The notes below the pieces were generated by a model. The model was not told the origin of the DNA. It saw only the letters and a program-made list of their open reading frames with translations, and did no database searches. From Blasia pusilla (taxonomy: Eukaryota): DNA of 64,000 nt. The DNA lies in contig CM114271.1 of the NCBI GenBank assembly GCA_050084515.1, positions 47,182,001 to 47,246,000 on the forward strand, read 5' to 3'. Position numbers and translations under genes: made by a program. Shown here piece by piece: positions 16,226-64,000 of this stretch (position 1 is the first letter of the stretch; every line of letters starts with the position of its first letter).

Positions 16226-16228
<3 letters not shown>

Positions 16229-25560: not shown

Positions 25561-25994
25561 CCAAACAACTCTTATAACTCCTAAGGAAGTGATGTATCCG
25601 GCGCCGCTCTCCTCCTGTCAACTTAGGGCCCATATTTGGTTCCCAAGTCTCCATCGTGACTACAGTAGGAATCTTCGGCGCGGGTTTTGGTGGTTGCTAT
25701 GGTGCAACCTCATCTCGGACAACAAAACTCGACTGCTCCCCTGCAGCCAACTGCAAAATCGGATCTCCGTTTGCAGTACCCCGAACCATGGTCGATGTTA
25801 TGGCTACCATCTCTTGACGTTCCTGCAAAACATCCCAAGAAGTCCAAGGGTGTTTCTCCCGATCACCCTTAGCGTGTCGATCTCCTCGGGTCTTGCCCCT
25901 AGCCACTTCCTCAATCGTCTCGGTAGGCATGGGGCTCACCAACGCAACTACTGTGATCTATCGCATCCTCAAACGACGCTGCTCAGCTACTCCT

Positions 25995-29704: not shown

Positions 29705-30399
29705 CATTCCTCTGAATGACGCTCTCCCCAACATCAGGGGTTGCGCTCCTGAATCCAACAAGACGCTTTGCGGATTAAAAGCTCTACCTCCAAGACTCAC
29801 CAATTGGAAGACCTCTCTCTGGTTATCCAGCAACACAACACCATGAGAAGCCATGGCACGCTCTATCGTGGGTCTAGTGGGCATCTCCGCCATCCTAGCA
29901 GCCGCAGACTGCCATGAATCTGACGTGGACGGCCCGAGCATCCGCTCGAAGGGCAGGTCCATCACCTCCTTTGCAATCACCTCTAAACGTGATGCAAGAA
30001 CTCCAACTCCACACTCACATAGCGTAGTGGCGAGCCCAACACCTTGGCGGGCGTACCTCCCAATGTCATAACATCAGAAGCAAAAAATAGCGGAGCACAT
30101 TACACAATCGTGGCCGCCCCCAACATCGTACTCGACACATGATCCTCCTAAGCATCAGCAATAGGAGTTGTCGCACTTGTTTCTCCCATTGCCCTCCGTG
30201 CCTGCACACCAATAACATCACCAAGTCTCTGAGAACTCTGATCAAGATCCAATCGATGGGATCCTCATCGCCTCTGAAAATGTGAAAGAATCAGGAAGCA
30301 TGGCCTGTTTTTTGGCTTCCACTCGATGTGGATCCAACTCTATGGCTGCTCCACGCGTCACAACTGCGGCGGCCTCCATCTGGGCACATCCAACCAGGA

Positions 30400-33534: not shown

Positions 33535-34040
33535 TAAATCAAGATCCAATCTCTCTCAACACCATAACTCTCAAATGTGTGCACTCTCACATGTCTCTCT
33601 CAACGTCAAACCAAACTCACTCTCCTAATGAGAGGATTGGGTTACACACAAGGCAAGTAAGACCATAGCTCTGTCACCTCATGTCAAGAGGTTCAACAAA
33701 AAGAGAATGAGCTCTCTCTCCTTGAGGTATACCCCTCCCCTCCCCCAAGCTCTCTCCATGGTAACCTATGCTCCCAAGTCACCTCTTTGGCTCTTGAACC
33801 GATGTAGGAGGTCAAGGGCCATTTATAAAAAATGGAAACTCGACCATATACTCAAAATGGTACTTACCTAAAATAGCAAGTTCCTTAATATGGCTTAAAA
33901 TGAGCCAAAACCAAGGGGAAACCTACTCTCTCAGGTTTCCCCAGGCCTCAGCAGGTCATCCTCGACCTCTTGAGCGTGTCCTCTACTACTCAAGAAGGCG
34001 CTCTACTAGATCTCACCGATCTATTCTAAAAGACGTGACA
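33535..34040 (-). repeat. 5' terminal repeat of copy 1 (segment B only)
   Basis: Aligns to 22079-22594 from TAAATCAAGATCCAATC to AAAAGACGTGACA. Segment A is absent next to it. Confidence 0.9.
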
Positions 34041-34524
34041 CTATTAAAATAATGGCTTATCGAAATAGAAGAGAAGCCTACTACAATGGGTGATTGGAAG
34101 CATCGAATTATTTGACACAAACAAAAATTAATTGACATGAAGGAATAACAAGAACCGATAGAGAATAAATAACCAGTTCACATGAAGGAAAAAAGATGTA
34201 AATCAATGGTGGACATAAACATACGAGATGGAATGATGTGTTGGATACCATGCCTCGCTAGGAAAAAAATATGAAACCTGCCTATGGAGTCCATAATTAG
34301 GGGATGTAGAGAGCATGTGACGCAACATGATGGTAACCCTTTGGGACAAAAAAACCCCCTAAATTCCAAAGAAAAGAAAAAAAAGCCATTCGCTATCCAC
34401 TAAGACAATAAAGTGGATTCTATTAAGAAAATAAACTACATATAAACCATCCTTCCACCATCGACCAATCACCCTCCACAGACCCATTAGAAAAATATAA
34501 GAGCACTCGTTTATTTATTTATTA

Positions 34525-42314: not shown

Positions 42315-42373
<59 letters not shown>

Positions 42374-43547: not shown

Positions 43548-44302
43548 TGTCGTGCGCATACACATCGCTACACAACATACATCGTTCTCACCGAACACAC
43601 ACACAAACACGCATGATCCCATGCTAACTCATGGCATCCAAACAACGAGACAAGAAATACTAAAATATCTCCAATAAAATAAGATCTAATCTCTCTCACA
43701 ACACCATAGTTCTCACATGTCTCTCTCAATGTCAAACCAAACCCACTCTCCTAATGAGAGGCTTGGGTTACACAAAAGGCAAGCAAGACCATAGCTCCGC
43801 CGCCTCATGCCAAGAGGTTCAACAAAGAGAGAATGAGCTCTCAAGTTCTCTCTCCTTGAGGTATACCCGTCCCCTCTCCCAAGCTCTCTCCATGGTAACC
43901 TATTCTCCCAAGTCACCTCCTTGGCTCTTGACCTGATGTAGGAGGTCAAGGGCCACTTACCAAAAATATAAAGTCGATCATATACTCAAAATAGTACTTA
44001 CCTAAAATAGTAAGTTCCTCAATATGGCTCCAAATGAGCCGAAACGAAGGGAAAACCTGCTCTCTCAAGTTTCTCGGGGCTTCAGCAGGTCATCATCGAC
44101 CTACTGATGCTTCTCCTCCACTACTCACAAAAGCGCTCTACTACATCTCACTGATATATCCTAAAAGACGTGATAGTTTTTGTGCGCATACACATCACTA
44201 CACAATATACATCGTTGTCACCGAACACACACACAAACACGCACGATCCCATGCTAACTCATGGCATCCAAACAACAAGACAAGAAGGGCTAAAATATCT
44301 CC
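43548..44302 (-). repeat. 3' split terminal repeat block of copy 2: A (43548-43672), B (43675-44175), A' (44178-44302)
   Basis: Same A-B-A' layout and 2-nt spacer as copy 1. Confidence 0.9.
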
Positions 44303-44491
44303 AATCGCCCCCATAGTTGGTGTTTAGGTCCCTCTAACTCCACATAGCCATCTATCCCTACCTACCATGACATACATCTCTCGGACACCAAGAGCAAGAA
44401 AGGTCGGCTGCTCATGTGACCCCATCGTTACTCGCCTTCCTGTCATCCATGTCACAGAAAATTTGGAATCGAAACCTACCTATTATCTCCT

Positions 44492-44650
44492 CTATGTACA
44501 TCTGGGACACATCCATCGTCCCCGAGGAACCCTAGTGAGAGGTGGCGTCAGACATGCCATATGCCAACCTCTCGAACATCCATCATAGACTAGCATCGTG
44601 GCGGCATCACAGGCAGAACCACACAACATACAACGCAAGCCTGCAGGAAC
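44492..44650 (-). pseudogene. PHD finger, copy 2
   Basis: LRCMLCGSACDAATMLVYDGCSRGWHMACLTPPLTRVPRGRWMCPRCT* (third Cys mutated to Tyr here, intact in copy 1). Confidence 0.9.
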
Positions 44651-44745
44651 TACTGCTAAGCTTGGATCTACTGTACCATGAATGTTAGGAAGATGATATG
44701 GTGCACAATTAGGCACATGGTCCTTCCATACCATACCATACCATA

Positions 44746-47500
44746 TCATCGCGTCCCTCCAACAAGAGAACACCGGATGGCAAAAACGTCACGAACTCTC
44801 AAGATAGTGCGCCCTGTAGTCACATCCAATATTGTCGGCATTGTCTGCTGCAAGTAGACATAATCTCCCCGATGAAACCTCTGGATAATTGGTCGATAAC
44901 CACCATCCCGAATAGTTGCATCCCTCAACGTATCACGATGTTGCGTAATCGCCAAGTTCTCGAACGCCATGGGCATCACTCTCCAAAACAACTCAGCCCT
45001 CTGAGAACATGCTCGCATCCATACATCCGAGTCATCAAGGTCCAGCACCTCACCAGCATCTCGACGAATGGCCGTAGGTAAATCTGGCTCTCGGCCATAA
45101 AGTAGCAAGTACGGTGAAAAAGACGCTAAGAATGTTTGCCTGCTGAATTTGTATCTTATTGCCAACCATGGCAACTAGAGGTCCCAATCTCCTAGGTGAC
45201 CTTTCTGCAAGCCATACTTGTGTAAACCCTTCTTCACCGTCTGCACAACTCTCTCCACTAATCCATCCCCCTCGGGATGATCTCGCAAAGTCGTGCGGTG
45301 GTCAATCAACGCCTGATCACACAAGGCGTGGAACTCACCATGAAACTCGGTACCCTGGTCGGTCAACACCTCAGCCCGTGCGCCATAATGACTCAACACT
45401 CTATCAAGGAAGGCATAAGCTACTCCCTCAATCGCTTTGTCAGGCAATGCAACCAACTCGATCCACTTTGAGAAGTGCTCGACCATCACCAACACATAAC
45501 GACTATGACACTCCGTCAAAGGCAAAGGTCCTGCAAAATCCAAACTCCATCTATACCCTAAGCCCATGATCGGTAATGGATGCAACTGTGGAGTCGGAGC
45601 ATTGAACGATGCTCGGACCCGATCACACACCATGCACCTGGCAACAAACTGTTGAACGTCAGTCTGCATGCCTCGCCACCAATACTTAATCTGGAGCAAG
45701 CTGTACGTCCGCTTCACCCCAAAGTGACCCAACTCCTCATGGGCATGCTGCACTAGTCGTGCTCTTTGCAAAGGATGCGGCACTACGCGTACTCTACCAT
45801 CCTCCCAAACCCTCAAAACATGTGTCTCCTCCCAACGGAACCGTTTGGCCCGCTGTATGATCCGATCCCGCTCTCTAGCACCCACAGTGCTCGCAATCTG
45901 CCAGTACAAAGGTACTCCAAGACTACTCCATCATCATGAATATCTCGGCCATCTCTCGTCTCCTCACTGGCCTCGGGATCCAAGGACTCTCCACTAGACC
46001 TCGCCGTCAAAGTCTCTACACTCTGGCTCTCCATAGCCAACATGCCTAAATAGGCACTGACTCCTCATCACTCTCTCCATGCCATCGAGCTCTAGTTGCA
46101 TCTCGCTGACTCGGGCATGGGTTACAACTCAATCCATCTGCATCTTGGTTGAGCGTCCCAGGTCTATGTACCACGTGAAAATCATAATCCTGCAACAACA
46201 GAGCCCATCTCGCAAGCTTCCCTGTAAACTTTTCGGACTCCATCAACCACTTCAGTGGTTGATGATCAGTGATGATGGTAAAGGGGTTGCCGAATCAGTA
46301 ACATCTGAAATGCGCGACAGCCCACACTACAGCCAAGCATTCACCCTCATACGAGATGTACTTCGCCTCTCCAGCCTTGTTTGAGCGGCTAGCATAAGCC
46401 ACCACAAACTCTCTACCCTCATCATCATGCTGGGTGAGCACCGCTTCAAGCCCCAACATGCTCCAATCTGTGTGCAACTGGAAAGGACGCCCCCTGATCA
46501 GTCTCCTCAAGATGGGCGCGGATGTCAACCTATCCTTGAGCAATTGAAATGCTTGCTCCTGCTCATCCCCAGAGTGCCACTCGTGATCCACCTTAGTCAG
46601 CAAGGTTAGCGGCTTCACAATCAAACTGAATCCCTTGACGTACCGCCGATAGAAGTCCGCCAATCCCATGAATGCGCGAACACTGCTCACATCTGTAGGG
46701 CGTCGAATACGTGAGATAGCCTCTACCTTTTTCTGCTAAACACCAAGTCCTCTGGGTATATCGTATGACCCAAGTACTCAATGTGATCCTAGAAGAACTT
46801 GCACTTGCTTGGATGTAGCTTTAGCCCATGTAATTGCAATCGTCGAAATACCTCCTCTAGATGTCGCTCATGCTCCTCAACCGTGGCGCTAAAAACTACG
46901 ATGTCATCAATATAACACCTAGCAAAATCCAGACCTGCCAAGATCCTATCCATGACCCTCTGAAACTCAGCCGGGGCATTCTTTAACCCAAATGGTAAGA
47001 ACCCCCACTGGTACAAACAATCCTTCCAGTCAGGTTGGATGCCCCAAAATGCCGTCTTATGTCTGTCCTCCAATCTAATAGGCAGCTGATGGTATCCGGC
47101 TCGCAAATCTAATGAACTAAAGACCTTTGCGTGACCAATCGCATCAAAGATCTCCTCAGGGGTGGGCATGGCATACCTATCGGACTTTGTCTGCCGATTG
47201 ATAGGTCGGAAATCCCCACACATCTGCCTATCCGTCCTGTTGCCATGCACATCCTTCTTGGCGGGCATGACAGTGGCAGATGCATACTCCCCATGCGACA
47301 TCTCCCTAGTCTTGCTCCAACCAAGTATTGGCTCCTACTCCGAATCAGAGCCCTCTCCATATCATTGTTCTTGTAAAGTCTTCGGAAGATCGGCGTGTCA
47401 CTCGACAACTCAATGCGGATCCCCGGTCCCTTCAACGTACCCAAATCCTCCAAGCTAAACGCAAAGCAACTCCTATAACTCTGGACGAATTGATGTATCC
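44746..47500 (-). pseudogene. RT - RNase H - integrase, copy 2
   Basis: RT: LDLRAGYHQL, LPFGLKNAPAEFQRVM, CYIDDIVVFS. RH: FQLHTDWS, VVAYASRS, EGECLAVVWAV. IN: HAHEELGHFG..CMVC (HHCC), SLDFAGP, LTDQGTEF, GDGLVERVVQT (DDE). The RT-RH-IN order is the Gypsy order. Confidence 0.95.
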
Positions 47501-47899
47501 TGCGCCGCTCTCCTCCTGTCAACTTAGGGCCCATATCTGGCTCCCAAGTCTCCATCGTGACTATGGTAGGACTCTCCGGTGTGGGTATCGGTGGTTGCTA
47601 TGGTGCAACCCCATCTCCAACAACAACACTCGACCGCTCTCCTACAACCAACTGCAAACTCTAATTTCCTCCACGTGCAGTGCCCGGAACCACGCTCGAT
47701 GCTGTGGCTACCATCTCCTAGCGTACCTGCAAAACATGTTGTGGCTACCATCTCCTATCCCAAGGGTGTCTCTCCCGATCTCCCCTGGTATGTAGATCTC
47801 CTCGAGTCTGGCCCTGAGCCACTGTCTCCAACGTCTCGGTAGGCATGGGGCTCACGAACGCAACCGATGTGATCTGTCGCGATCTCATACGGCGTTGCT

Positions 47900-48860
47900 C
47901 AGCCACTCCCAAGCTGAGAATCCATGTCAAGCAGTTCAGGTCCATTGCTTGACCCAAGACATGGCGTCGTGATGCCTCTGATACTGACGGTACTGCCATC
48001 ATACGTGTGGGAAATCCCTTTGCTCGCTCTCTCTCGTCGACGTTGGGCTCCACAAACCGCTGAACCTGGTCATCCCAAACCAAGCTAGGGCCGGCCTCCT
48101 TGTATGTGTAGGAAGCGGGAAAACTCACAAACGTGGGCAAGGCTGCCCGCGGCCTGCCTACCCTGTTGACCACAATCAATGTTGGTTGATCATCGTGCCT
48201 CATAGCCTGTGATCGACAACCTCGATCCAGAATGTAATCCACTAACAAATGGGAGGGGCGGTTCACTCTCGCATACGCCCTCGATAACACCCCATGGGGC
48301 ACCAAGTTGGTCCACCATAGACGCGGGCAATGGGCTCTCGAGACTACACTCGCCGCATCCAAGAACACTACTGGGCCGATCCAGGCACGCACCTCATGAG
48401 CACTCGTCACCAGTCGTGACATGGAATCTCCTAAGATCGGCACATTCTCCAAAACGTAGGCTGGAGAACAAGAATGGTGCTCTTGCAACTACCATAAGAC
48501 CCTCAACATCTCCCAAAACAACCTGGACTGAGTGTCAGCCAACCCGTTGCCTCGTCCAACACTCGATTGGCCCTGACATGGCCAACTGGCAATGACCAAA
48601 TCAATGGTCCCTACCCAATCTAAGTCATGCGCTCCCAACAACGAAATATCCCTCGGTAGGGAACTCTGTACCCCTGTACCACGGACGCAGACAATAAGTC
48701 GGGAAAACATAGGCGTAAGTATGCCACATGTCGTAGTGAGACACGCCTCGCAACATCATCACTCTCCACATACAGGTACTACTGCACTTGCACTCTTGCC
48801 TGCAAAATAGTAACTAACCCAGTGCTAATCCCTCCAAAGAGATCTAACACTCGAATACCC
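47900..48860 (-). pseudogene. DNMT3-like C5 cytosine methyltransferase domain, copy 2
   Basis: GIRVLDLFGGISTGL (I); PRDISLL (III); IDLVIASWPCQGQS (IV, catalytic PC); QSRLFWEMLRVL (V); YVLENVP (VI); LDAASVVSRAHCPRLWWTNL (VIII); ERERAKGFPTRM...SRRHVLGQAMDLNCLTWIL (IX-X). Confidence 0.93.
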
Positions 48861-49259
48861 TCCTCTGGGATACACCACACAATGGGTGTGGTATCCAAGG
48901 GTGTCATTGTTGCACTCCCTGCTACCTCGGGTTCCTCAGACCCGTCATGCTCCGGTGCAAACGCCTCGCTCCACGCGGTCTGCATGTGCTCATCTGCCGA
49001 TCGTCGAAGCTCCTCAGTCGAGCCCCACAACGGCACTTTTCCTCCACGGAATGCGGCTACCATAACACTCCTCTCCAAAGAAATGTCAGGAACGGGAGTA
49101 TTCTTTGCATGGACATGTCCCTCAATCAAATCACTAGGCCAAGTGATGGCCCTGTTAAATGTTGCTAACGTCACCACCTCTCCTCGCCGTCGCTCGATCA
49201 CTGCACCTGTAAATCGAACGGGTAATGAGCTAAGGCACCCATCACCTGACTACCATCTT

Positions 49260-49620
49260 GGTCTGTAGGATGGTGACTCCTCCCAGTAATCTAGGGAAAA
49301 CCCCATCGGTTATAACACTGCTCCACCAACCAAGACGTCGTAGGACTCTGCATCAGTCACTATCGCCTTGGCTCGCACCACGGACTCATCTGTAGGATGT
49401 CCTTGGCGAATCCTCACCATGACCTCTTGTCAGGTGATATATTGTGTGGTACTCGCTCGACCCAAGGATGTCTGTATCCAGAATGGACAACGCTCCACAT
49501 CGGCTCTCGTCAAGCCCAATCCTCTGAATGACGCTTTCCCCAACATCAGGGGTTGCGCTCTTGAATCCAACAAGATGCGTTGCGGACTAAACGCTCTATC
49601 TTCGGGACTTACCAACTGGG
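49260..49620 (-). pseudogene. Aspartic protease, copy 2
   Basis: QRILLDSRAQPLMLG ... DAESYDVLVGGAV. Confidence 0.85.
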
Positions 49621-50479
49621 AGACCTCTCCTCGGTTATCCAGCAACACAACACCAGGAGAAGCCATGGCCACCTCTATCGCGGGTCGAGCGGGCATCTCC
49701 ACCATCCTAGCAGCCGCAGCATGCCATGAATCTGACGTGGACGGCCCGAGCATCCGCTTCAAGGGCAAGTCCATCACCTCCTCTGCAATCACCTCTAAAC
49801 GTGATGTAGGAACTCCAACTCCACGCTCACATAGCATAACGGCGAGCCAAAAAGCCTCGGCGGGCGTACTCTCCAATGTCATAACATCGGAAGCAGAAAA
49901 TAAATGAGCGTGGTACACAATGGTGGCTGCCCCCAACAACGTGCTCGACACATGCCCCTCTTGAGCATCAACAATAGGAGTCGCCGCACTTGCTTCTCCC
50001 ATCGCCTTCTGTGCCTGCATACCAACAACATCACCAGCTCTCTAGGAACTCTGATCAGGACCCATCGATGGGGTCCTCATCGCCTCGTACAACGTGAAAG
50101 ATTGAGGAAGCCTAGTCTGTTTCCTGGCTTCCCCTAGCTGTGGATCCAACTCTGCGGCTGCTCCATATGTCACAATTGCGGCGGCCTCCATCTGGGCAAC
50201 CCCGCATATCCAACCAGGATCCTCCATATCTTTGGCTGCTCCATATGATGTCGATGCCAGGGATCCGGCATCGGGTAACCTCAATGCCATAGTGGTAATT
50301 TGCTCCTGTAGTTTTTGTATCTGAGCAGCCATCCCAGCCTCACGTCCGGCGTCTCCCTCGATGCGTCTAGGTGGTGGTACTCTACGTTCCTCCACGGGCA
50401 GCTCCACCATCCTGTCGGGCAACTCCTTGTCCCCCAACAGGACCACGTGGTGCACGATCTCTAGGCCCACTCGGACTGC

Positions 50480-51148
50480 CTCCTCACTCTCGTGCCCTCT
50501 CTGGCCCTGGGTTCGGACGTAACTCAAGATGTAAATTGAAACACCTTGCGCGTGTATGACCATACCTCTGATAATAGTCACACTGATAACCTCCTGGTGC
50601 AACACCATCTCCTCCTCCATGCTGAGAAACACGTCGTGACCCTGACGAGTGCAATGGCACTGATGATGGGCTCCACCACATGACCAACAAGTAATATTAG
50701 GCGGCTACTGCTTAGCCGTATATGAAGGCGCAAGTCTTTATGGCACGGCCTCCCAGTATCCTCCCTGAGCTCGTGGTGCCACAGTCGACCTATCTCGGAG
50801 TCAAAGTTGTTGCACATGTGGTGCAGACAATCGTGACTGCTCTCGCCCAGAACCCATGGTGGCCAAGCTCTACTCCGCCATGTTGCGCTGAATGTTCTCG
50901 GCAATCCTAAAAATATATCTCAACATAGGGGAGGTGTTCATAAGAAGCACCCCCTCCCGTACCCGTGTCTGCAGGGTCCGGTCCAGCATCGCGTACCATG
51001 ATTGGATAGCCTGAGCCTCTATCACCCCCTGAGTGACGTTGATCAACCAGCGCAAGCGAGTGTAAGCCTCACGCAAACTCTCACCCGGGCGCCTCTGGAA
51101 GTCATGGATGCTCCACAACTTCTTCGTCCGTACCCCCTGGTAGCTCGC
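50480..51148 (-). pseudogene. Gag (truncated), copy 2
   Basis: DFQRRPGESLREAYTRLRWLI and the knuckle CDYYQRYGHTRARC. Confidence 0.8.
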
Positions 51149-52531
51149 GTTGACACGTGGACTTTTTACCCTCCTCCTTTGATGACATGTGTAAAAGAAG
51201 AGTTAAACTGGCGTAACAGAAAAGCTGATGTCTTTCACGCGTGATATTCATTTTCATGGGGCATTATGCTAGTATTCATGATGGAGAAACCAGATTAGAG
51301 AAATAAGAAAAAAGAAATTAATTATCATCTGATAAGAAACAAACCTCCATGAAAAGGAAAGAAATCCCCATAAAAGATGCACTCAAGGATTAAAACCTAA
51401 ATACATCCTTCTTACGACATCGTAGAACAAAGTGCCTATCCAAACCAACGTCCAAGGAGAATTGGAAAATAGTGTAAAGCTAGCCAGTTAGAATCCGAAA
51501 TTGACGACGCCCAAGAAATTTAGCTGGTTGAGATTCTGACGGCTTTAGGGGACATTCTGCAAAATGGATGGCCGAAATTTCTTGAGCCAGAAATGTGCGG
51601 CTTGCTGGGAGGAGTTTGCCAGAATATTTCTGCTTCCGGTCACTTCCCCTGGATTCTTGCCGGATTGTATTTTACGGAGGTTGGAATTTTGCTTGACCAC
51701 TTTCAGGTGGTCGGAACACCGAATAGAAGGCGAGAACCATTAGATTCTCATCAGGAAATCTTGGCCGTCTGAGGTAGAGCATCTGCAACGTAAGGTTTGG
51801 AGTTGAATCGGGAGTCAGAACTTCGAGGCGAGTTAGGAGCCTTAGCGCCTAGGCCTCTGGGGAACGAGTCACCGAGGCCTGCGAAGCCGAAGGGGTCCAT
51901 TCCCTAGAGTCCACACTTTGTGCTCGAGCGGGTCGAGCGACTTGAGCCTCGAATGTCATTTGCGTCTTCACTCAGCCGCATCTCCCAAATCCCATGCACA
52001 TTGTGGCTATGCTTGTCCAAACTTCAAAGTGCCGAGTTTTTTCAGAGTTTCCATTCGATTCTTCACCCTGAGTTCTTGACACGGCTATTGCGGCGAAGCC
52101 GCACCAGAGAGTCAAGTGCTTGCGAGTTGGCTTCAAGGTTCAGGAAGATGTTTTTGAACTACCAGAGTATTACTTGTAATATTTACTATTACCCAGTTTC
52201 TTTTACAGGTTGTCGGCTCCAAGAGGGTGTTATCATGTGTACAAGTTTTTTTCTGATATTTTTAATATTAATCTGTGGATATCCAAAATTTAGTTTTGTT
52301 CCCACGTTAAATTTCTGTCCAAATTTTTGCTCTCTAGCTTATTTCCGTTTTTTTTGCAAGTCGTCAACAATAATCCGGCCGTTGGTATATTCCCTGGAAA
52401 AAATAAAATCATGTGGAATTCCACCTTTTCTTATTCATTCACTCCCACAATCTAAAGACTTAAATTCTAAAGACTAAACACTCTATTCACTTTCAAGTAC
52501 ATCTATTGAAGTTTCCCATTCCACATTCTAT

Positions 52532-52643
52532 GATATCCTTGGCAGGAGTTGAACCTGATAATACTCCCACCGGTTGGGAGCCAAGGATCCTTCCCCTCTA
52601 GAATACTTGGAGCTTTAGGGCTCCAAGTATTCTAGAAGGGCCC
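52532..52643 (-). other. Conserved hairpin + tRNA-like fold downstream of hAT transposase A
   Basis: Sense strand: CCCTTCTAGAATACTTGGAGC-cctaaa-GCTCCAAGTATTCTAGAGGGG aagg ATCCTTGG CTCCCA-accgg-TGGGAG tattat CAGG-TTCAACT-CCTG CCAAGGAT. Confidence 0.7.
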
Positions 52644-52666
52644 TACCAAACAAATTTATGAACATC

Positions 52667-54881
52667 CTACTTAATAGGTGTTTCATTGTTGTCTTCTCCC
52701 ACATCTGAAGACAAATATTTTTCTGGACTAGCAAATATATACCTAAAATGGGCACAAGTTTTCCATACCACAGACTCAGCTAACAACTCCTCATTATCAA
52801 AGAAAGATCCTTCTAAGGAAATTCTCAAAATAACATCTAAGTATTTAGTCGACAATCTATTGCGAGATTTGCTTTTGATCATATTCTGAATGGAGAATGC
52901 TCTCCCACAAATGACAATACTCACACATTGGACTCTAGCAATATTTTCTAAAACCAAAAAGTTTGAAAATTTACATTGCAAAGAGGGACTCCAACTTACC
53001 ATAGCCCATCTGAAGTTGCGATCCTTCCACTCTGTGGTAGCCATCAGTTTGAAAGACTGAAACTCTTGTTTCACAATAGGAGAATTAATTAGAGCAGGTT
53101 GCAACTGACCCTTAAGAGGTAATTCACCTCCAAAATGACCACACAAGTCATTAAGATCCTTACAACCCCAACTATTCAATCCCACCTGTCTAGAAGGCAT
53201 GTGCAAGGGGTTTAGAATTTTCATTGCACCAATGAGATGGTTATCACGAAATCGTTCCTATAAAGCTGAACAAACACTCTCAGCAAATCTTTTCTGAAAG
53301 AACAAGGCAACCTCCAAGTCCCTACCTGTACGATCGCGGGACATCTCTATACTATGGAACCTTTTACCCCTTACCTCGGACTGTAAGCGTCGAAGATAGC
53401 CACCTTGAGGCCCAAAATCAGGTAAAATGTGATAACCGGTTTCTTCAGAGAAGGTTGATGCATTTAAGTCATGTTTTTCCATCACAAAATTCATAGTGAT
53501 GGAAGCTATCTCGGAATTTACAATACTCCCTACAGTGCTAACATCCACAAACTTGTACTGAAAAATCTTGCTCAAATTTGCAAGCATGGAAAGAATATCA
53601 GCCAGAAAATACATGGTAGATTATTTGGAATGATCTTAGCTTGTTAAATAAACTACCAACATTCCCATCATCTTCCGAAGGAGAGATATCCCTAAAATAA
53701 CTCAACACCGATTCTAGAGAATCACACAATGTGGAAACAGCTTGCCATCAAGATAACCATCGTATTTTATGGTATCTTTTCATGACTCGTTGGGAGTCAT
53801 TGAACTTCTCCTGCAAAGATGTTAAGACTGTTTTCCTCTTGGAGAACCTCCGGAAGTAACCAGCAACAGCATTGAGAATGGAATCTACTTTAGTAGAGAT
53901 CGACTTGCAATTAGTTGCTTTCGCAGCAGACAAAGCAGCAAGATTTTTCCTATGAGCAACACAATGAACAGATAGAATGTAGGGGTTCACCTTTTGCTTC
54001 ATTTGTGAAGCTACCCCTGTCTGGCTACCTACCATTGTTGAGGCCCCATCAGATCCAAATGCTACCATCTTGGTAAACTCCAACCCTCCGTCCTTGATTA
54101 GTTGCAACAAGGTTTCAGTAATGGCATTAGAAGATTTGGATTCGCATTGAAGTAATCCTAGAAAACAACATTTTGCTTGACCCTCTTCAAATGAAAGTGG
54201 CAAACACAACTAAATGACCTGTAACAGATATATCGGTGGATTCATCAATCATGATACCGAAAAAGGGAGAAGCCTGCACTCTAGAAAGAGTTCTTCTCTG
54301 TAGAACTTGGGTGATATAATAAGATATTTCACTGCAACTCTTTTCATCGTGGTAAAGATCTCTGGTTATAGGTGCATTTACAGAAAGCATTAACTTATAG
54401 AGTTGGGGAATTTCAAAAATGGAATTGCCTCCTTCGCAAGGAAGTATGCACACCTAAACAATGTTAGGAGGGCTACTTCACAAGTTTGGTTTGCTGTCCC
54501 AATGGCCTTGGCCATCGATTGCTTACCTCCATTTGCAGCCCATGACAACTTGATATGCTCATTGGACTTGGCGTGGTCAGTGAATGCAGAGACTTTGCAA
54601 TTGATTGCTCCATCTCTAGCAAAAGCACTCTTCCCCTTACCCTTCCTACATACTTTACAAAAAATTCTACCAAGGGCTGAATCATAGTCAATCCATTCGT
54701 ACATTGAGTACCAAACGTCCTTCCAAGCTACGCGAACTTTCTCAGGTAAGGCTGCACTACTGCTTGACGTAGGTTTTTCATCTTTATCATCAAATGAGCC
54801 AAAAAATGCAATGATATTTGGAACATCGTTCCGGCATCCCTTGTCTAAGAAAGCACTCATGGTCTTCTGTCTCTTGGCCAT
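52667..54881 (-). pseudogene. hAT-superfamily (ZNF862-like) transposase, copy A
   Basis: MAKRQKTM start; Zn finger IFCKVC..FTDHAKSNEH; FFGIMIDESTD; AFGSDGASTMVG; VHCVAHR; IRWLS; C-terminal dimerisation region AFSIQNMIKSKSRNRLS. Frameshifted. Confidence 0.9.
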
Positions 54882-57416
54882 TAAACCACAATAAATAGAC
54901 TCGAATGCGGGAAACAAGTATATAAACCAACAGGTGGCCAAGGCTCAAGCAAATGGCCTGTTCTTTCAAATCAGATGGAAGAGTTCATGCAGATCTAGAG
55001 CTACGAAGCTTCAAGTCAAGAACGCGAACTTCCAAAGCACTTACTAAACCCTAAACTTTACTTCAGTAAACTTAATCTAAACATCTGAGAATTTGTGAAA
55101 AAAGGTACTAATCTCTGCAAGCTGGAAATTGAATCCACTACCCAAATATGACATTCGAATTGAACCAATCCCCAAGTATGAGAGTCCGGAGACCAATTGA
55201 AAAATGGCTACAACGAAAGCCGATTTGCAACTTCAAGACTTCAACGGGGCTCACTGTGAATCAACAGCCAAATCATGTTACTGAAAAACGAAACAGAAAA
55301 TACACTAACGCTAAACTGAAGTACGGATCTGCGGAGGAAAAGCGTAGAGCAGCAAAGTAGCAAAAACGAGCAGCAGCAAATCAGAGAGCGACAAAACATC
55401 AAACATTCGGAGCAGTAGGAATGGAGCGGACGTCGACAAGAATGTTGGGGCAAGGCCAAAACTCATACCAGCAAGGCTGTCTTGCAAAAGCGAGCAGAGC
55501 TGTCGTGCATGAGCAGACGTTGAGGGAAGATATTGGGGCAAGGCCACAGGGTCAAAACTCAGACCGCCAAGGCTATCGTGAAGTTGAGCATGAGCCAACG
55601 TTGAGCGGAGTTGCTGCGCAATAGTAGACGTCGAGCGGAGCTGCGCTGTAGAGAGAGAAAATCTACGGAATCGGAGTTCGGCTGCTTCTTCACTGTGTAG
55701 TGAAGAAAAGAGTTTGGACACGGGAGAATCTCAAAGAATTTCCAAACTCGAGTGCGGAGTTGGGCAACTTCAGCTGCTTCGACACTATGTAGTGAAGAAA
55801 AGAGTTCGAATGCTGGAGTCGAGACCGGGCGGGAATTTGGCAACGCTTTGCCAACGTCGAGTGAGAGGAGAGGAAAACTTGTCGAATGAGGGGGGGGAGG
55901 GCCTCCCCGGCGTACTACCCCTAGGGCCCAGCCTCCCTGGGCCCAGGCTCAGAAAGACCAAAGCCACAGCTTCCCCCGTAACCCGGGCTAGAAAGCCGTC
56001 GATGGAGATCGGACGGCTAAAGGGGCATACGGATTAGGGTTCAGCACTGTCCCACTAAGTTTTGACGGTGCGGATCTCTACATAAAAAACTAATCTCCAT
56101 CCAACCTTCCATCATGCCATCCAATCCCCCTATGCCACCTACGTACCTGGTTTCTGATAGTCAGGAATTAAAGCAACAGCATTCCGTGAGGCTTATTCCG
56201 GGAAGCCATCGTCTTCTGCCGGCTTCAGTCGGCCCTCCGCCATATTCGGCACATTCATGCTGGAATCCAGACAAGCACCGTCAGTCCCGACATCGCCCCG
56301 TCAAATTCTGGTACATGTGCAAGGCTCGCCAGAAGTCCTTCGGGAACTTCCCCTACTAGATCGGAAATTCACGAAAAGTGTCGGCAAACACTACTCGTGA
56401 CTCCGGATCTATGAAAAGATTGGTTCTTCTTCGGACCAGTTCAGCTAGCTATTCACTTGTTTTTCCTCCCTTTTTTTTCTACACGATCGCGAACGTCATT
56501 TGCGTCTACAGTGTCTTCTGAGTCCCGTGCACACTCCAGTGTGCGAAGTGCTCTTCCAAAGTTCTGAGTCTTTTCAACATTTTGAGTCCTTGTTCAATTC
56601 CTTACCTTGGGTCCTTGATGTGGTTGATGCGGCAAAGCCCTGGTCGAGAGTTGAGTTCTAGGGAGTCGGGAGTAGGCGCCTTGGAGTTTTTTTGGCTGTT
56701 TTCTAGGTTTCTGCTCGAGTGGTCAAGAGTTGGCATCCCGTGGGCTTTCCTGCTGTTATCCTTTTTATGGCCGAGCGTTGGGGACTTGGGATTCCGTATC
56801 CTAGGGCCTTTCCGAGCTATTCTCTCTTTTTTCTGCTTGAGTTTCTACACTGATTGGTGCCCGAGAGTTCATGTGCTCGGGCCAACTTGGCTCTTTTGCA
56901 ATTTGGCTTTTATCTCGAGTGCCCGGGAGTGTGGAGGATGAGACTGAGTGTCGAATGTGTAACCTTGTCAACTTGCTCTAACTACTCAAATCTCCAGTGC
57001 TCATTCTATAGCTTGAATCCTCGACCACCACGTCTTATGTTGGAGCTTTGCGTTTTGTGGATATTGCACTCTAGAGCTTTAATGTTTACACTTTTGTGAG
57101 AGGGTTTAGGCTGCTTTGTTTGACTTGCCTAAGTTTCTTCTCAGCCTTAGCGTTGCTCTACTCATGAGAGTCAGAGGCCCTATTTTTCGCTCTTGATCTT
57201 GGTTCTGGGTCTGCTTTGCTCTCGGGTTTGGCAGCAGAAAGTGATTTTGGCTAGAGTCTTGGGTTTTTCGACTTGGGCCTTTTGCTATGAGTCTTGGACT
57301 CTCGGATGCAACCTTTCTTTTGTTGTGAGACACTTTTTCTCTTGTCCAAAACATGAGGCCTTGTGCCCGGCTCTCATTTAGACCTAAACCTTTGTTAAAC
57401 CTTCATTGTCTCATAC

Positions 57417-59703
57417 GTGGCTAAGAGACAGCGAACCATGAGTGAGATGTTGGCCAAAGACGTAAGCCGAGACTTTCCAGAGATCTCAAGCCGGTCAGGG
57501 TCCTCAGATGGGAAGGAAGTTGAGAATTCCGGTACTCCTTCCAGTAGTCTAATTAAGAAGAATCAACTGGCTTGGAAGGATGTCTGGTACAACTTATTTG
57601 ACTGGATAGAGTTTCATGTAGAATTTGGAAGAATATTTTGTAAGGTTTGTAGACAAGGAAAGGGTAAAAATTCCTTTGCAAGGGATGGTGCCATAAACTG
57701 TAAGGTTTCAACCTTTACAAATCATAGAAATACGATTGAGCATATGAAACTTTATTGGGCTGCTAATATAGGAAACAGGTCGCTGGCCAAGGCCATTGCC
57801 ACTACTAATTGGACTTGTGACCAAGCCTTGTTAATATTGTTCAAGTGTGCATACTTCATCGCTAAGGAATCATTGGCTCTTGCCAAATTCCCGAATCTGT
57901 GTAAGCTGTTACTTTGAGTGAATGCACTAATTACCCGAGATTTATACCAAGATGAGAAGAGTTGTGTTGATATGTGTTATTATGTCAGTCAGGTAGTGCA
58001 CAGAAGGACACTTTTAAAAGTTCAACAATCTCCTTTCTTTGGGATCATGATTGATGAGTCCACTGATATTTCAGTAACACCCCATCTCGTTGTATTTGCA
58101 ACTTACTTATTAGAAGGGCAGGTCGAGAATTCCTTCTTAGGATTTTTGCGATGTCTAGAGAAGTCTTCAAATGCCATTACTAATCTTTTGGAGTTGATCA
58201 AGGACTTAGGACTAGCGAGTTCAAAGACGGTGGCTTTTGGATCAGATGGAGCCTCAACTATGGTATGTAGTCAGAATGGAGTAGCATCTCACTTGAAGTT
58301 GAAGGCAAACCCTTTTTTGCTCTCTGTACACTGCGTTGCACATAGGACCAATATTGCTTCTTTGACAACAGCCAAAGGACCAGGTTGTAAAGATGTATCT
58401 ACAGAGATTGATTCCATCTTGAATTCTGTAGCTGGATACTTTAGAAGGTCCTCAAAGAGGAAGTGTGCTCTTGCAACTTTGCAAGAGAAGGTGAATGACT
58501 CTCTACAGGTCATGAAGAGATATCATAAAGTTCGTTGGTTGTCTCGATGGCAAGCCGTGACTACTTTGTGTGACTCCCTTGAATCTGTTCTTGCCTATTT
58601 CAAGGATATTCCCTGCTCTGAAGATGATGGTAATGCCACTAACATGTACAACAAGCTGAGATCATTTGAAATGATCTATCAATTGTACTTTTGACAGACA
58701 TATTGTTTATCCTTGCTAATTTGAGTAAGGTTTTCCAATACAAATTTGTAGATGTTAGTACTATTGGTAGTATTGTGAATGCTAAGATTGCCTCTATTTC
58801 AATGAACTTTGTAATGGAGAATCATGACTTGAATGCTTCTACATTCTCGGAAGAAACATGTTATAATCTCTTACCTAATTTTGGACCCCCTAGTGGATAC
58901 TTGAAACAATTGCAATCTGAGATTAGGGGTAGAAATTTCCATAGCATTGAAATGTTGAGAGATCGTACGGGAAAGGATCTACCGGATGCTCTAACTTTCC
59001 ACAAGAACTTTGCTGAGAATGCATGTGTAGCCTTACACATGCCACCTATCAAACTATTGTCCCTAAATCCTTAAAAAGATTTAGGGACAATAGTTTGATA
59101 GGTGCAATGAAAATTATGAATCCTCTTCATATGCCCTCAAGGTTAGTAGGGTTGAATAATTGGGGTTGTAAGGAAGTGGATGATCTTTGCGCACATTTTG
59201 GAAGGGAAACGCCTTTGAGGGGTCACTTGCAACCACCTCTTGTGAATTCAGCAAGTGTAAAGTCTGAGTTTCAATCATTTAAGCTCATGGCCACCACAAA
59301 ATGGAAAGATAGAAACTTTCGAGATTTGTGGGCAATGGTAAGTTGGAGCCCATCTCTGCAATGTAAGTTCTCTAATTTGCTTGTATTAGCTAAAATTGCT
59401 AGGGTACAATGTGTGAGTGTTGTAATTTGTGAGAGGGATTTCTCTGTGCAAAATTTGATCAAGACAACAAGTCGTAATCAATTGACGACTAAGCATCTAG
59501 ATATGGTTCTCATGATAGCTTTAGAGGGTAAGATACTTGATTATGAGGATTTTTTGGTAGAATCAGAACTCCTTTGGAAAAATTGTGTTAACTTTAGATA
59601 TGTGTATTTTAATCCAGAGATATATGTGAATGGTAAGGATGATACTCCACTAGAGGTTGCAAATGTAGAGGATTCTCCAAGTGCCCCAATTTCAAATGTT
59701 TAG
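57417..59703 (+). pseudogene. hAT-superfamily transposase, copy B
   Basis: Same motifs (IDESTD, SDGAS, HCVAH, RWLSRW, CERDFS), with in-frame stops and frameshifts. Confidence 0.9.
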
Positions 59704-59731
59704 TTGGTGGGAAGAGAGAGATATGAGAGGT

Positions 59732-59865
59732 CCCTTTCATAATACATTGAAGATTTGTTTGAAATCTTCACAATACAAATCTTCAATGTATTATGAAGGG
59801 GTAAGATCCTTGGCTCCCGGTTGGGTAGAGGCCAGGCTAGGTTTGATTACTGCCAAGGATGTTAC
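59732..59865 (+). other. Conserved hairpin + tRNA-like fold downstream of hAT transposase B
   Basis: CCCTTTCATAATACATTGAAGATTTGT...ACAAATCTTCAATGTATTATGAAGGGG taag ATCCTTGG CTCCC..GGG..GAG gccaggc TAGG-TTTGATT-ACTG CCAAGGAT. Confidence 0.65.
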
Positions 59866-61929
59866 AAGGGAGGAAAGAGTTTAGGGACCCAAGGAGATGG
59901 ACCAGGGAACTAGAAGAATGGAACATGGAGTGAGTGTAGGAACTACTGTGAGCAAGAAATAGCAAAGGTGAAAATGTAAAGAGGCAACAAAAAAATTTAG
60001 CCGGTTGATATTCTGGCTACCGGAAATTTTCCGGGGTTGTCTGACAAATTTATGAAATCTGCCGGGATAATTTTTTTTTAAATGGATAATTTGCCGCTAA
60101 AAAAAAAGTTTCCTTTTTTTCCCCGACTAACTTTTCCCAAAAACCGTCGTACTTAAAAATTTACCGGCAACCAGCGAGTTTTCGCCAAAAACTCCCCGGA
60201 CCTTGATCCAAACGTCATATGCACTTCGCATTGATGCACCACGTGTGAGTGCGCTCGCTCGCCTCCACTCTCACCCTTCGAGCAATGAACGGGCAGAACC
60301 GGGGCTACGTGTTGACCTAGCCGGGAAAATTCAGAGAATTCTGGGCCGTGTTTGAACATTCCGGATGCAATTTTGAGTGGGGTTGGAGGTATCCCGGAAA
60401 CCTGCTGGCCGGAAAGGGGTAGGGCGGTTTTCTACTGAGTCCCGGGGAATATGTGACGGAAATGCGGCGTTCCAACGACATGCCATCCGGTTTCTAGTTG
60501 CCGGCCAAAAAGGTCATTCTGGTTTGCTGCGGCATCAGTTGCCGGCTCCCGGAAAACTAGAAAATATAGGATTTAATCGAGGCCCTCCATCTTAGGGCAA
60601 GCCGCCACGTCGAGACTCAGATGAGGCCGCTAGGGGGCGGGGCCTAGGGCGTAGCCGCGTGCGATTCGCAGGAATCGAGTTCAATCGACTCGGGCCTAGA
60701 CGAGACTCCGAGGGGGTAGAGTGGAGGGGGATCCGAGGGGCTGTCATTTGCATGCCTCCCTTCTTCTGAGTTTGTGACCTCACTCGTCCTCGCTCGCACG
60801 GCTTTTTTTTTGCGCTCTCTCTCTATTGCTTCGCGTCGCTGCGAGCTCGGTGGTGTCTTTTCTTCGCTGCTCGCTCGTTGGTGTCTTTGCGGCGTTGCTC
60901 GATCCTTGGTGTTTTCTTGCATCTGCTCGATCCTCTGTTTCTTCGCGCTATTGCTCTTTCTTAATTGTGGTTGCTCGACCCTAAACGAGTTGGTGCTCAT
61001 TCTTTCCTTCGTTCAGGCCTGAGCTGCTCGACTCTAGCGCCGTCTGCTCTTGCCGTGTTTTTTTGGTCGAGGCCTGACTATGTTGTGTGTTGCATTGTTG
61101 CTCATGTGCTGAGCTACTCCTCGTGCAGGCCTGACTGTCTTGTGCGCGCTGTCGAGGTGCTCTCGTCTAGACTGACTCTCAACTCTTGAGTTGATTTCGT
61201 GACTTGTCCAAGCCCAAGTCCACCCAATTCTCTTGTGGTTGATGATGTTAAGCTGCTTTCGTCTTGGCCCGATTCCGAGCTGCTACTGATTTCGTCAATG
61301 CCCGAGCTCTATTTGTATACTCCAATTTCGCGCTCGTCTAGCCATTTTTTTCTCTGGTCCAGTCTCGACTTGACCTGTCGTTTGAGTCTTCTTGGTTCGT
61401 GGAGTCTCGGGTGCACTTGAGGTGCATACTCGAGGACTGTGACTGGTAGAACTTTGAAGCTCCACTGACCCGCTGTTGTGTTTGAACTTTGAAGTCTTCG
61501 TGTTTGTGCCCTTGTGCTCTTCGTTGCTACTTGAGTATCGGCAGCTCTGGCTTCAGAACTCTGAATGTACATGAATCCGAGCCGCGATTACGGACCTTAG
61601 GGAATCAGGTGTGTTTGATAACACATTGCATTGGCTCATAGTATCTTTTGCCAAGTCTTGGGGTTTAAGTACTTTTCAGATCCGCATTTTCTTGAGCTCC
61701 ATTGTTTCTTTAGCACCTACTAAGTGACAGGTTTATGTTGCGCAGCTTGCACAGCTTTGCTTAGAGTTTTACTCAGGTAAAGCCTTAGGTAGGGCATTAG
61801 GGCTCGCGGGTTTGGGTTACTTTAGTGAAGTGCACAACAATAAGAGAAAAATTGTACTAAGAATATAGTAGGTCCTTTACACCATATTTTAGTATCAACG
61901 TCATAGTTCTGCACTCTCTGAGCCTCTAC

Positions 61930-63870
61930 ATGGCTAAGAGACAGCGAACTATGAATGAGATGCTACACAAAGAAAGTTAGTCAAGACTTCGCAGAGGAGA
62001 ACAGTAGGTCAGGATCATCGGATGGGAGAGAAGGGGACAAATCAAATACTCCTCCGATAAGTCAGAGTAAGAAAAACATATTGGCTTGGAAGGATGTTTG
62101 GTATACTTTGTTCGATTGGATAGAATTCCATGTAGAATCTGGTTGGATTTTTTGCAAAGTTTGTATACAGGGTAAGGGGAAAAGCTCCTTTGCTAGGGAT
62201 AGTGCCATTAATTGTAAGGTTTCGGCCTTCACAAATCATGGTAAGTCGAATGAGCACATGAAGCTTGCATGGGCTGCGAATGTGGGGAACAGATCCATGG
62301 CCAAGGCTATAGCCACTACAAATCGGACTTGTGATATTGCACTTTTGACTTTGTTCAAATGTGCATATTTCGTTGCAAAGGAAGCCTTGCCATTTTCAAA
62401 GTTCTCAAATCTGTGTAAGTTATTGATTTCTGTGAGTGCACCTATAACCCGCGACTTGTACCAAGATGAAAAAATTTGTGCTGATATGTGTTATTATATT
62501 AGCCAGGTTCTTCTTAGGAGAAACCTTTCTAAAGTGCAACAATCTCCTTTCTTTGGGATAATGATTGACGAGTCCACAGATATCTCTGTCACTGGACACC
62601 TTGTTGTATTTGCAACTTACTTAGATGAGGGCCAGGTAGAGAGTTGTTTTATAGGATTGCTACAACGTCCAGAGAAATGTTCGAACGCAATCACTCATAA
62701 TTTGTTGGAGTTGATAAAGGATTCGGGACTAGAGGGATCAAAATTTGTGGCCTTTGGATCTTGTGGAGCTTCTACTATGGTAGGAAGCCAAAACGGAGTG
62801 GCATCTCAGCTGAAACAGAAGTTAAATCCTTTCATGTTGTCTGTGCATGAAAGGATTTAACACAGCACACAGTAAGAATCTTGTTGCTTCAACAACAGCA
62901 AAATGTGTAGGATGTAAGGAAATATCTACAGAAGTAGATTCAATATTGAATGCAGTAGCTGGATATTTTAGAAGGTCGTCCAAGAGGAAGCTTCCATAAC
63001 AATGAATTTTGTAATGGAGAACCCTGATCTGAATGCCTCAACTTTCTCTGAAGAAACTGGTTATCACATTCTACCAGACTTTGGTCCTCCATATGGGTAT
63101 TTGAAACGTTTACAGTCTGAGATTAGGGGCAGAAAGTTTCATAGTATTGAATTGTTGAGGAATCGGACCGGGAAAGATTTAGAGGCTGCCTTGTTGTTTC
63201 AAAAGAATTTTTCTGAGAGTGTTTGTATAGCTTTACAAGATCGGTTTAAGGATAACAATTTGATTAGTGCTATGAGGATAATGAATCCTCTGCACATGCC
63301 TTCAAGGCAAGTGGGACTGAATAGTTGGGGTTGTAAGGAATTAGATGACCTCTGTGCACATTTTGGGACAGACTTACCCTTCAAAGGTCAATTGCAACGT
63401 TCTTTACTGAGTATAGCAGCCATGAAACAAGAGTTTCAATCATTTAAGCTCATGGCCACTACGGAGTGGAAAGGTCGAAACTTCAAGGACTTGTGGGCTA
63501 TGGTAAGTTGGAGCCCGTCCTTGCAATGTAAGTTCTCTAACTTGCTCATTTTAGCCAACATTGCTAGGGTACAATGTGTTAGTACTGCTATTTGTGAGAG
63601 AGCCTTCTCTGTGCAGAATGTGATTAAGACTAAAAGTAGAAATAGATTATTGACAAAGCATCTGGATGTTGTTCTTAGGATTGCCTTAGAGGGGAAAATA
63701 GATGATTGTGCAACTTTGTTGGTTGAATCTGTAGTTTTTGGAAGAATTTTGCACACTTTAGGTATGTGTATGCCAATCCTGAGAGATATGTTTATGAGAT
63801 AGAAATTCCACCAGAGGTTCGTGTAAATTTAGATGCTTTAGACCCAAGTGAAGTTGTTGTGGATGTGTAA
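61930..63870 (+). pseudogene. hAT-superfamily transposase, copy C (internal deletion)
   Basis: Same motifs. Jumps from ..FRRSSKRK directly to ..SITMNFVME at about 62990, losing the RW-motif region present in A and B. Confidence 0.9.
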
Positions 63871-63908
63871 GATGAGGGGGAAAAGCTTAGGGTTAGGGAT
63901 AAGGGGGT

Positions 63909-64000
63909 CCCTTTTCTGATACATTGAAGCTTTCATTAAAAAGCTTCAATGTATTATAGAGGGGTAAGATCCTTGGCTCCCAAATGGTGGGAGGCCTAGC
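63909..64000 (+). other. Conserved hairpin + start of the tRNA-like fold downstream of hAT transposase C (runs off the window)
   Basis: CCCTTTTCTGATACATTGAAGCTTT-cattaa-AAAGCTTCAATGTATTATAGAGGGG taag ATCCTTGG CTCCCA-aatgg-TGGGAG. Confidence 0.65.

Follow-up and report, generated by a model that had tools for sequence, protein, structure and literature searches.

What is the structured element that stands behind the stop codons of three diverged transposase genes at this locus, and what might it do for them? The window, a 64,000-nt stretch of contig CM114271.1 (assembly GCA_050084515.1), carries in its final 12 kb three copies, A, B and C, of one transposase gene family. Behind each copy lies a module of two parts, a long hairpin followed by a tRNA-like fold. 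We consider it very likely that this module is a selected sense-strand RNA element of the hAT family to which the genes belong. As to function, we tentatively favor processing of the MALAT1 type: RNase P and RNase Z would cut at the tRNA-like fold, and the hairpin would cap the new 3' end.

By their domains the carriers of the module are predicted hAT-type transposase genes. Domain zf-C17orf113 scored above its Pfam cut-off in A, B and C and in L001, a metagenomic relative described below; Dimer_Tnp_hAT scored 21.7 against a cut-off of 21.4 in L001 and fell just under it in C, at 20.8; DUF4371 scored under its cut-off. The protein-atlas cluster nearest to these transposases is mostly Streptophyta (phylum known for 24 members). 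All three window copies are disrupted by frameshifts and in-frame stops, which the first-pass annotation of this DNA did not mention, and they share 69–76% pairwise DNA identity. Their stop codons lie at 52667-52669 (A), 59701-59703 (B) and 63868-63870 (C), that of copy C being in the homologous frame, downstream of a frameshift.

Metagenome contigs were searched for further carriers by a protein-guided scan, built from an alignment of four intact relatives (P0001–P0004, 743–780 aa). It relied on a pair of N-terminal peptide patterns, which put contigs with just the 3' half of a gene outside its reach. At least 27 loci were found, and close-family loci reaching the stop codon numbered 4 of these. 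L001, found via its protein only, is the sole close relative with a real 3' flank among the matches listed; it has an intact, uninterrupted open reading frame (ORF) of 734 aa with the same Pfam domains, at 46–53% amino-acid identity. The other three (L003, L006 and L007) end 33, 18 and 1 nt after the stop codon. We did not take these ends as evidence that transcripts or assemblies break at a hairpin, because multi-copy contigs also break where paralogs diverge.

Structure of the module

The hairpin begins 26 nt (A), 28 nt (B) or 38 nt (C) after the stop codon, where the first-pass annotation had placed a stem at 25–40 nt (Table 1). That annotation had described the stem as longer than 20 bp and as varying in sequence with pairing kept, and alignment of the three hairpins confirmed the description. 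Standard pairs fill 62 of the 63 aligned cells; the stem sequence varies at 9 of its 21 pairs, 12 pairs are invariant, and 7 carry compensatory changes on both sides, the pairs first quoted as examples among them. This pairing and covariation was reached by none of 500 shuffles. When the partner strand was slid by 1–3 columns as a control, pairing fell to 35–49% and double changes to 0. A U·G pair occupies the identical stem position in all three copies. The hairpin is an uninterrupted Watson-Crick stem, with neither U-rich internal loops nor an A-rich tract.

Stems of 21–27 bp, nearly perfect in the window copies, raise the question of whether the hairpin is a precursor of the small interfering RNA (siRNA) or microRNA (miRNA) kind, the fold being merely its 3' edge and the small RNAs either regulating the family or serving the host against it. 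An siRNA source was also among the functions first proposed. Rfam miRNA-precursor models did match the hairpin, at best with 39.9 bits against a gathering score of 88; we rejected these matches, together with one to Parecho_CRE (25 bits against 55), as generic to long hairpins. With 7 of 21 pairs changed and pairing kept, no fixed small-RNA sequence is conserved. L001, the only relative from another genome, keeps the fold, yet its hairpin is bulged and, at 11 bp, not long enough to be diced, which weakens the siRNA idea further. We regard a small-RNA precursor as very improbable.

From the end of the hairpin to position 1 of the fold there are 3–4 nt in all four copies (A, B, C and L001). In the window the fold is opened, 4 nt past each hairpin, by the invariant 14-mer GATCCTTGGCTCCC, which occurs exactly three times there, once in each copy, in line with the invariant opening first noted. 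Allowing up to 2 mismatches, 0.31 matches would be expected in the window, and 3 were reached in 1 of 100 shuffles. The three-way junction proposed in the first-pass annotation is indeed the minimum-energy fold of copy A, with a closing stem of 8 bp and two arms, one of 6 bp with a loop of 5 nt and one of 4 bp with a loop of 7 nt. Copy B keeps the closing stem with degenerate inner arms, and in copy C the window end cuts off the fold after its D-like arm. The whole 118-nt module of copy A folds at −61.1 kcal/mol (z −7.8), equalled by none of 200 shuffles; its tRNA-like fold alone has a z of −2.8.

In L001 the fold starts 69 nt after the stop codon. Closing stem and T-arm stack to 8 + 4 = 12 bp in A and L001; the exceptions within the stack are one A·G mismatch in the closing stem of L001 and one broken T-arm pair in B. 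The T-loop, for which the consensus UUCRANY serves as elbow criterion, reads UUCAACU in A and UUCAAUU in L001, and deviates in B (UUUGAUU). The D-loop GG is kept in A, C and L001. An anticodon arm is absent from the fold, and in the alignment to the Rfam tRNA model 1 position stands in place of 17 model positions. That model (RF00005) aligns copy A end to end, from 1 to 71, but the score of 18.5 bits (E 0.29) stays below the gathering score, which is 29.

The T-arm had first been likened to a B box and the fold's opening to an A box. The B-box likeness stood, the 11-nt consensus having its sole exact match in the window at 52545-52555, in copy A, and an exact match in L001 too; the likeness to an A box, judged by eye, is partial. 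Upstream of A and B there are further B-box-like sites with one mismatch, which were discarded as being no more frequent than chance predicts (7 found, 7.07 expected). An internal B box could make the module a DNA-level element for RNA polymerase III (Pol III) and TFIIIC, either a small Pol III gene or a TFIIIC barrier that keeps the transposon 3' end open. Same-species DNA reads are compatible with a terminator. These were placed at 80% likeness (run X11; 4,394 reads, 18 of them at least 99% alike), and 46 paralog reads cease matching copy A at 52535, the last closing-stem base; past this point the paralogs are mixed, and their majority form, at an agreement of only 0.57, has a terminator-like stretch of seven T beginning two bases past the fold. 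However, A, B and L001 lack any run of four T in the 30 nt that follow the fold, copy B's B box is mutated, and the adjoining hairpin is left without a role. The compensatory changes at three pairs of the D-like arm, together with G·U pairs, indicate RNA pairing rather than a DNA box. A Pol III or TFIIIC element is, in our judgment, distinctly unlikely.

Table 1. Positions of the transposase gene copies and of the parts of their modules in the window
Feature	Position	Strand	Description	Basis
Copy A gene	52667-54881	-	decayed intronless hAT-type transposase gene, predicted (zf-C17orf113 / DUF4371 / hAT dimerisation type); several frameshifts and in-frame stops	Pfam matches
Copy A hairpin	52593-52640	-	21 bp, 6-nt loop, one conserved U·G pair	sequence, inverted-repeat search, folding, pair alignment
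Copy A linker	52589-52592	-	4 nt (AAGG), hairpin to fold position 1; putative RNase P site at its 3' side	sequence
Copy A tRNA-like fold	52534-52588	-	8-bp closing stem, 6-bp D-like arm (GG in loop), 4-bp T-like arm (loop TTCAACT), discriminator A	minimum-energy fold
Copy B gene	57417-59703	+	decayed transposase gene, broken frame	Pfam, self-comparison
Copy B hairpin	59732-59801	+	27 bp, 16-nt loop	sequence, inverted-repeat search, folding, pair alignment
Copy B tRNA-like fold	59806-59861	+	closing stem intact, D-like and T-like arms degenerate	own model, 71.9 bits
Copy C gene	61930-63870	+	decayed transposase gene; about 330 nt missing internally compared with A and B, frameshift near 3' end	
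Copy C hairpin	63909-63964	+	25 positions, 1 mismatch and 3 wobble pairs	sequence, inverted-repeat search, folding, pair alignment
Copy C tRNA-like fold	63969-64000	+	5' part only (5' closing-stem strand and D-like arm), cut by window end	own model, 35.4 bits, truncated

Selection, copy number and strand

Conservation among the three copies depends on codon position: identity is 84–87% at second positions but only 49–60% at third positions, indicating that the lineages diverged mostly under coding selection and that neutral sites are near saturation. Similarity among the copies runs from the ATG, which at 54881 in copy A forms its sharp 5' boundary, to the last base of the closing stem. Within the module, the tRNA-like core is identical at 36 of 55 positions between A and B and at 25 of 31 between A and C, and the hairpin arms at 13–19 of 21. 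Neither the spacers between stop codon and hairpin nor the 100 nt that follow the module could be aligned better than shuffled sequence, as the first-pass annotation had remarked of the flanking noncoding DNA. A module kept despite near-saturated synonymous sites and unalignable flanks has been under selection. Together with its recurrence behind L001, this upholds the proposal of a selected cis-element of this hAT lineage. The data thus show how the module is built, that it has been selected, on which strand it lies and that it is tied to the gene family.

Comparison with L001 separates the two parts of the module. The L001 fold is identical to that of A at 40 of 54 positions and to that of B at 39 of 55 (71–74%), and its coding DNA is only 56–59% identical (third positions 45–50%). 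In the D-like arm of L001 both partners have changed at three pairs, and one more pair has become G·U; the T-loop and the D-loop GG are kept. The tRNA-like part is the conserved core of the module, and the long hairpin is documented only in the genome of the window. Other scans returned nothing: the 14-mer and closing-stem strand had 0 exact-pattern matches in the metagenome contigs, a T-arm/acceptor 22-mer had 0 in viral contigs, and protein-guided scans of prokaryote genomes and viral contigs found no relative. A 13-nt exact repeat of the T-arm at 393-407 of L001, about 430 nt before the start codon and in the same orientation, was rejected as probably a chance match (8.9 bits, E 7.1; no fold around it).

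A common element of the short interspersed (SINE) or miniature inverted-repeat (MITE) type would occur independently of the transposases, a possibility that the first-pass annotation had itself raised. We built a covariance model, R1, from the four copies (A, B, C and L001) and scanned 118,414 bases, comprising the window and the metagenome loci. The scan recovered the four training sites (copy A at 84.3 bits, by construction, as a training sequence) and no solo copy, the remainder being the antisense of B and a 15-nt fragment (E 7). Depth of the DNA reads was about 40–100 over the coding regions and 3 in the lowest flank bin, showing that the family is multi-copy; element bins were lower than most coding bins, at 24 and 34 (A), 21 (B) and 41 (C), showing that the module is not commoner than the gene. 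By read depth and in the 118,414 bases scanned, the module thus shows no independent SINE- or MITE-like spread. It shares with tRNA genes and tRNA-derived SINEs the T-arm/B-box motif, the D-loop GG and an acceptor-like stem; it differs from them in lacking an anticodon arm, in staying below threshold in Rfam and without an ARAGORN call, in being no more abundant than its carrier gene, and in having no solo copies in the bases scanned.

In nine of nine comparisons folding is more stable for the sense strand than for its antisense, by 0.4–4.9 kcal/mol, and the G·U pairs of hairpin and fold would be C·A mismatches on the opposite strand; both favor a sense-strand RNA. RNA reads were taken from three stranded runs (1,900, 2,238 and 1,983; 6,121 in all) and counted in 394-nt bins. 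If the usual library convention is assumed, almost all are sense to A, B and C. Their depth peaks over the 5' halves of the genes (30–93) and declines toward the 3' ends, reaching about 0–1.3 (A), 0.5–4 (B) and 14–19 (C) in the element bins.

These results also bear on an explanation at the level of DNA, by which the hairpin is a palindrome from template switching or hairpin-type repair, and the tRNA-like part a captured tRNA fragment that either serves as a subterminal binding site or has no use. Palindromes do arise here, a private one of 35 nt at 59038-59109 in copy B being an example, and template switching can imitate compensatory change; short CCGG/GCCG-type repeats, like those of hAT subterminal regions, lie 100–250 nt further downstream. 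However, the U·G pair conserved in three of three hairpins, with other wobbles, opposes both arm-to-arm homogenization and a two-strand cruciform, as does the better folding of the sense strand in all nine comparisons. Moreover, the module adjoins the stop codon, the subterminal region with its repeats lies at least 100 nt further out, and the tRNA-like part is better conserved between genomes than the coding DNA. A decaying relic would be unalignable at such divergence. We would give a DNA-level origin very little weight.

A possible cut-and-cap function

From the arrangement of its parts we infer that the module is cleaved, that its hairpin has a capping role and that a small RNA is released. 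The module would be transcribed as sense-strand RNA in the 3' untranslated region (UTR) of an intronless hAT transposase gene family. Its fold, with an acceptor-type stem on the T-arm, an elbow of D- and T-loops and no anticodon arm, would be recognized by nuclear RNase P, which would be the protein-only enzyme PRORP if the host is a plant. The cut would fall 3–4 nt past the hairpin, and its product would be a transposase mRNA ending in a stable terminal stem-loop that replaces a poly(A) tail or exists alongside one. RNase Z would trim the 3' side, giving a small tRNA-like RNA of about 55 nt.

The case for RNase P and RNase Z lies in the 12 stacked bp and in the elbow of T-loop and D-loop GG; that for capping lies in the hairpin standing 3–4 nt before position 1, which is where a structure must sit to protect a cleaved 3' end. 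According to a review (PMC10941002), PRORP and RNA-based RNase P both read the elbow (G18–Psi55, G19–C56) and its distance to the acceptor 5' end. In plants, the review adds, PRORPs use tRNA-like structures to shape the ends of mitochondrial mRNAs, and a nuclear tRNA–snoRNA (small nucleolar RNA) precursor is processed by them as well. The more specific pathway, by which transposase mRNAs would mature without poly(A) through a nuclear RNase P cut (by PRORP in a plant) at an anticodon-less tRNA mimic, with the hairpin as cap and a mascRNA-like RNA freed, we think somewhat doubtful.

Several results weigh against the cut-and-cap reading. Likeness to tRNA is weak by standard tools: the Rfam check suggested in the first-pass annotation gave no match at gathering level, leaving the sub-threshold alignment of copy A, and ARAGORN called no tRNA. 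Among the three complete copies RF00005 matches only A, with no match for B or L001 at E up to 10. Covariation, strong in the hairpin, is weak in the tRNA-like part, where over 4 sequences it was reached by 46 of 500 shuffles and was contributed by one sequence. In L001 the closing stem has the A·G mismatch noted above, the minimum-energy fold is not the cloverleaf (z −0.79), and the hairpin, equalled in stability by 43 of 200 shuffles, is at chance level. The three more distant hAT relatives with a 3' flank (L014, L017 and L024) did not match the four-copy model. None of the 6,121 RNA reads is at least 99% alike to the window; the reads therefore stem from paralogs and do not demonstrate expression of A, B and C themselves. 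Among the rows listed no RNA begin, end or loose end falls at the junction of hairpin and fold, at a bin size of 394 nt that is too coarse to place 3' ends. Finally, A and L001 have AAUAAG/AAUAAU-like motifs about 65–105 nt further downstream, at which the transcript may be polyadenylated in the ordinary way.

An alternative is an uncut, structured 3'-UTR element in a normally polyadenylated transposase mRNA, serving, for example, stability, translation, nuclear export, evasion of silencing or cell-to-cell movement. Such movement has a reported precedent: Zhang and colleagues are said to have found, in Plant Cell in 2016, that tRNA-like structures confer cell-to-cell movement on plant mRNAs. 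The evidence of selection and of the sense strand is equal for an uncut element and for a cut one, and the sequence that holds the polyadenylation-like motifs, within about 105 nt in A and L001, is AT-rich. RNA relative to DNA depth in bin 59686-60079, which holds the element of copy B, is about that of the last coding bin, with no clear drop (X15: 4.05/21 against 7.9/41), although bins of 394 nt are too coarse to show read-through of the fold. On the other side, RNase P and RNase Z should cut any nuclear RNA polymerase II (Pol II) transcript whose tRNA-like fold has an elbow and a stack of 12 bp, as they do MALAT1 and engineered tRNA-flanked transcripts, and an uncut element gives no obvious role to the fixed 3–4 nt spacing of the hairpin in four of four copies. 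Overall we think an uncut element unlikely.

Cutting and capping, if it occurs here, has its closest parallel in MALAT1 and NEAT1 (MEN-beta). In both of these a tRNA-like fold with a reduced anticodon arm (mascRNA, menRNA) stands at the 3' end of a Pol II transcript, directly preceded by a structure that protects the 3' end, and the logic proposed here of cut, protect and release is the same. The protecting structure differs, being a triple helix in MALAT1 and NEAT1 and a plain Watson-Crick hairpin of 21–27 bp here, with no U-rich loops or A-rich tract. The carriers differ too: vertebrate nuclear long noncoding RNAs (lncRNAs) there, and here a multi-copy transposase mRNA, probably of a plant, for which cleavage is a deduction from structure.

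ENEs are a second point of comparison. Tycowski and colleagues reportedly described them in 2016 in intronless but not in intron-containing hAT genes, and the module likewise lies behind the ORF of an intronless hAT gene, as in L001 and, by ORF size, its relatives P0001–P0004. Unlike ENEs, which clamp poly(A) or an A-rich tract in a U-rich internal loop, the module has neither, and no such clamping loop appears in the predicted folds of the window copies or L001; the tRNA-like fold, in turn, is absent from ENEs. PMC13541005 places ENE stability elements behind hAT transposase genes, with the rice hAT element TWIFB1 as an example, and both kinds are thus cis RNA elements just behind a hAT transposase ORF, thought to stabilize the transcript 3' end. 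A third comparison is with the t-elements of plant mitochondria, which, according to PMC1920247 and PMC10941002, are tRNA-like folds beside coding RNA that set mRNA ends via RNase P and RNase Z. These and the other PRORP substrates are organellar, or nuclear tRNA–snoRNA precursors, whereas the module belongs to a nuclear transposon gene and has a hairpin upstream. In its proposed logic the module works like the MALAT1/NEAT1 kind, yet it belongs to none of the kinds compared. The literature searched (open-access papers and preprints) yielded no account of any hAT transposase gene followed by a tRNA-like element, which agrees with the statement to that effect in the first-pass annotation; the related idea in print is that of the ENEs.

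To our knowledge there are very few Pol II transcripts whose 3' ends are processed in the manner of a tRNA, MALAT1 and NEAT1 being the main ones, although the principle is widely used for engineering. If the cut-and-cap reading is true, this would be the first MALAT1-type 3'-end pathway for a protein-coding transcript of a mobile element and the first outside vertebrate lncRNAs, implying that mobile elements evolved the solution on their own. Next to the ENEs, it would be a second and separate answer to the instability of intronless transposon mRNAs, adding to the evidence that intronless transposase genes require special 3' RNA devices, and it would offer a compact natural cassette of hairpin and tRNA mimic for poly(A)-independent expression. 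A small covariance model of the module can also serve as a marker that finds this hAT lineage and marks the true end of its coding unit in large, repeat-rich genomes.

Transposon ends, paralogs and other features of the window

We found no convincing pair of terminal inverted repeats with an 8-bp target duplication around the transposase copies, by repeat search or local alignment. The sole candidate ends, 56945/60619 for copy B, have an inverted repeat of 12 nt, 9 of which match, and are flanked by a duplication of 8 bp that contains 1 mismatch, which is about chance level (about 0.3 expected by our own estimate). DNA read depth rises at 56945, but RNA reads further upstream speak against these ends. 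Beyond the fold in A, B and L001 (window 52134-52433 and 59962-60261; L001 3265-3420), CG is absent from the first 100 nt. Clusters of short motifs of the CCGG, GCCG and CCGA types come next and reach 6 per 50 nt, where the figure for the entire window is 0.44. The 9-mer TACCGGCAA is common to B and L001, and the clusters look like hAT subterminal repeats. The neighbor of L001 is a convergent protein-kinase gene, ending 360 nt past the L001 stop codon.

Sense RNA reads from paralogs cover about 0.8 kb before the ATGs of B and C (56534-57321 and 60868-61655) at a depth of 10–29, where DNA depth is 3–16 in three of four bins. Loose read ends were seen at 61434, 61495, 61711 and 61882, as was a skip of 130 nt from 61733 to 61864 in both RNA and DNA reads. 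This suggests long, perhaps spliced, 5' leaders in the expressed paralogs.

Two features set individual copies apart within the coding region. In copy C about 330 nt, roughly 95–110 codons from the middle of the transposase, are gone at 62989/63000; they are present at 53507-53833 in A and 58463-58800 in B, and paralogs with and without the deletion are both present in RNA and DNA reads. The arms of the palindrome private to copy B are 91% complementary and 2 nt apart. At this palindrome 39 nt are skipped by 24 DNA and 9 RNA paralog reads, 23 and 4 of which, respectively, have 4 other letters in their place; it may be a repair- or footprint-type palindrome.

Elsewhere in the window, a duplicated segment of about 7.5–9 kb (21950-31335 and 43548-51148, 82–90% identity) represents two copies of an LTR (long terminal repeat) retrotransposon-like element, with internal repeats at 22079-22599, 33535-34044 and 43675-44173 and an integrase (Integrase_H2C2 and rve) at 45175-45930. 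Self-comparison also revealed tandem repeats that have diverged and whose periods are about 125 and about 100–115 nt, at 13927-14527 and 17223-17582, and a dinucleotide microsatellite common to 16225-16259 and 42320-42373.

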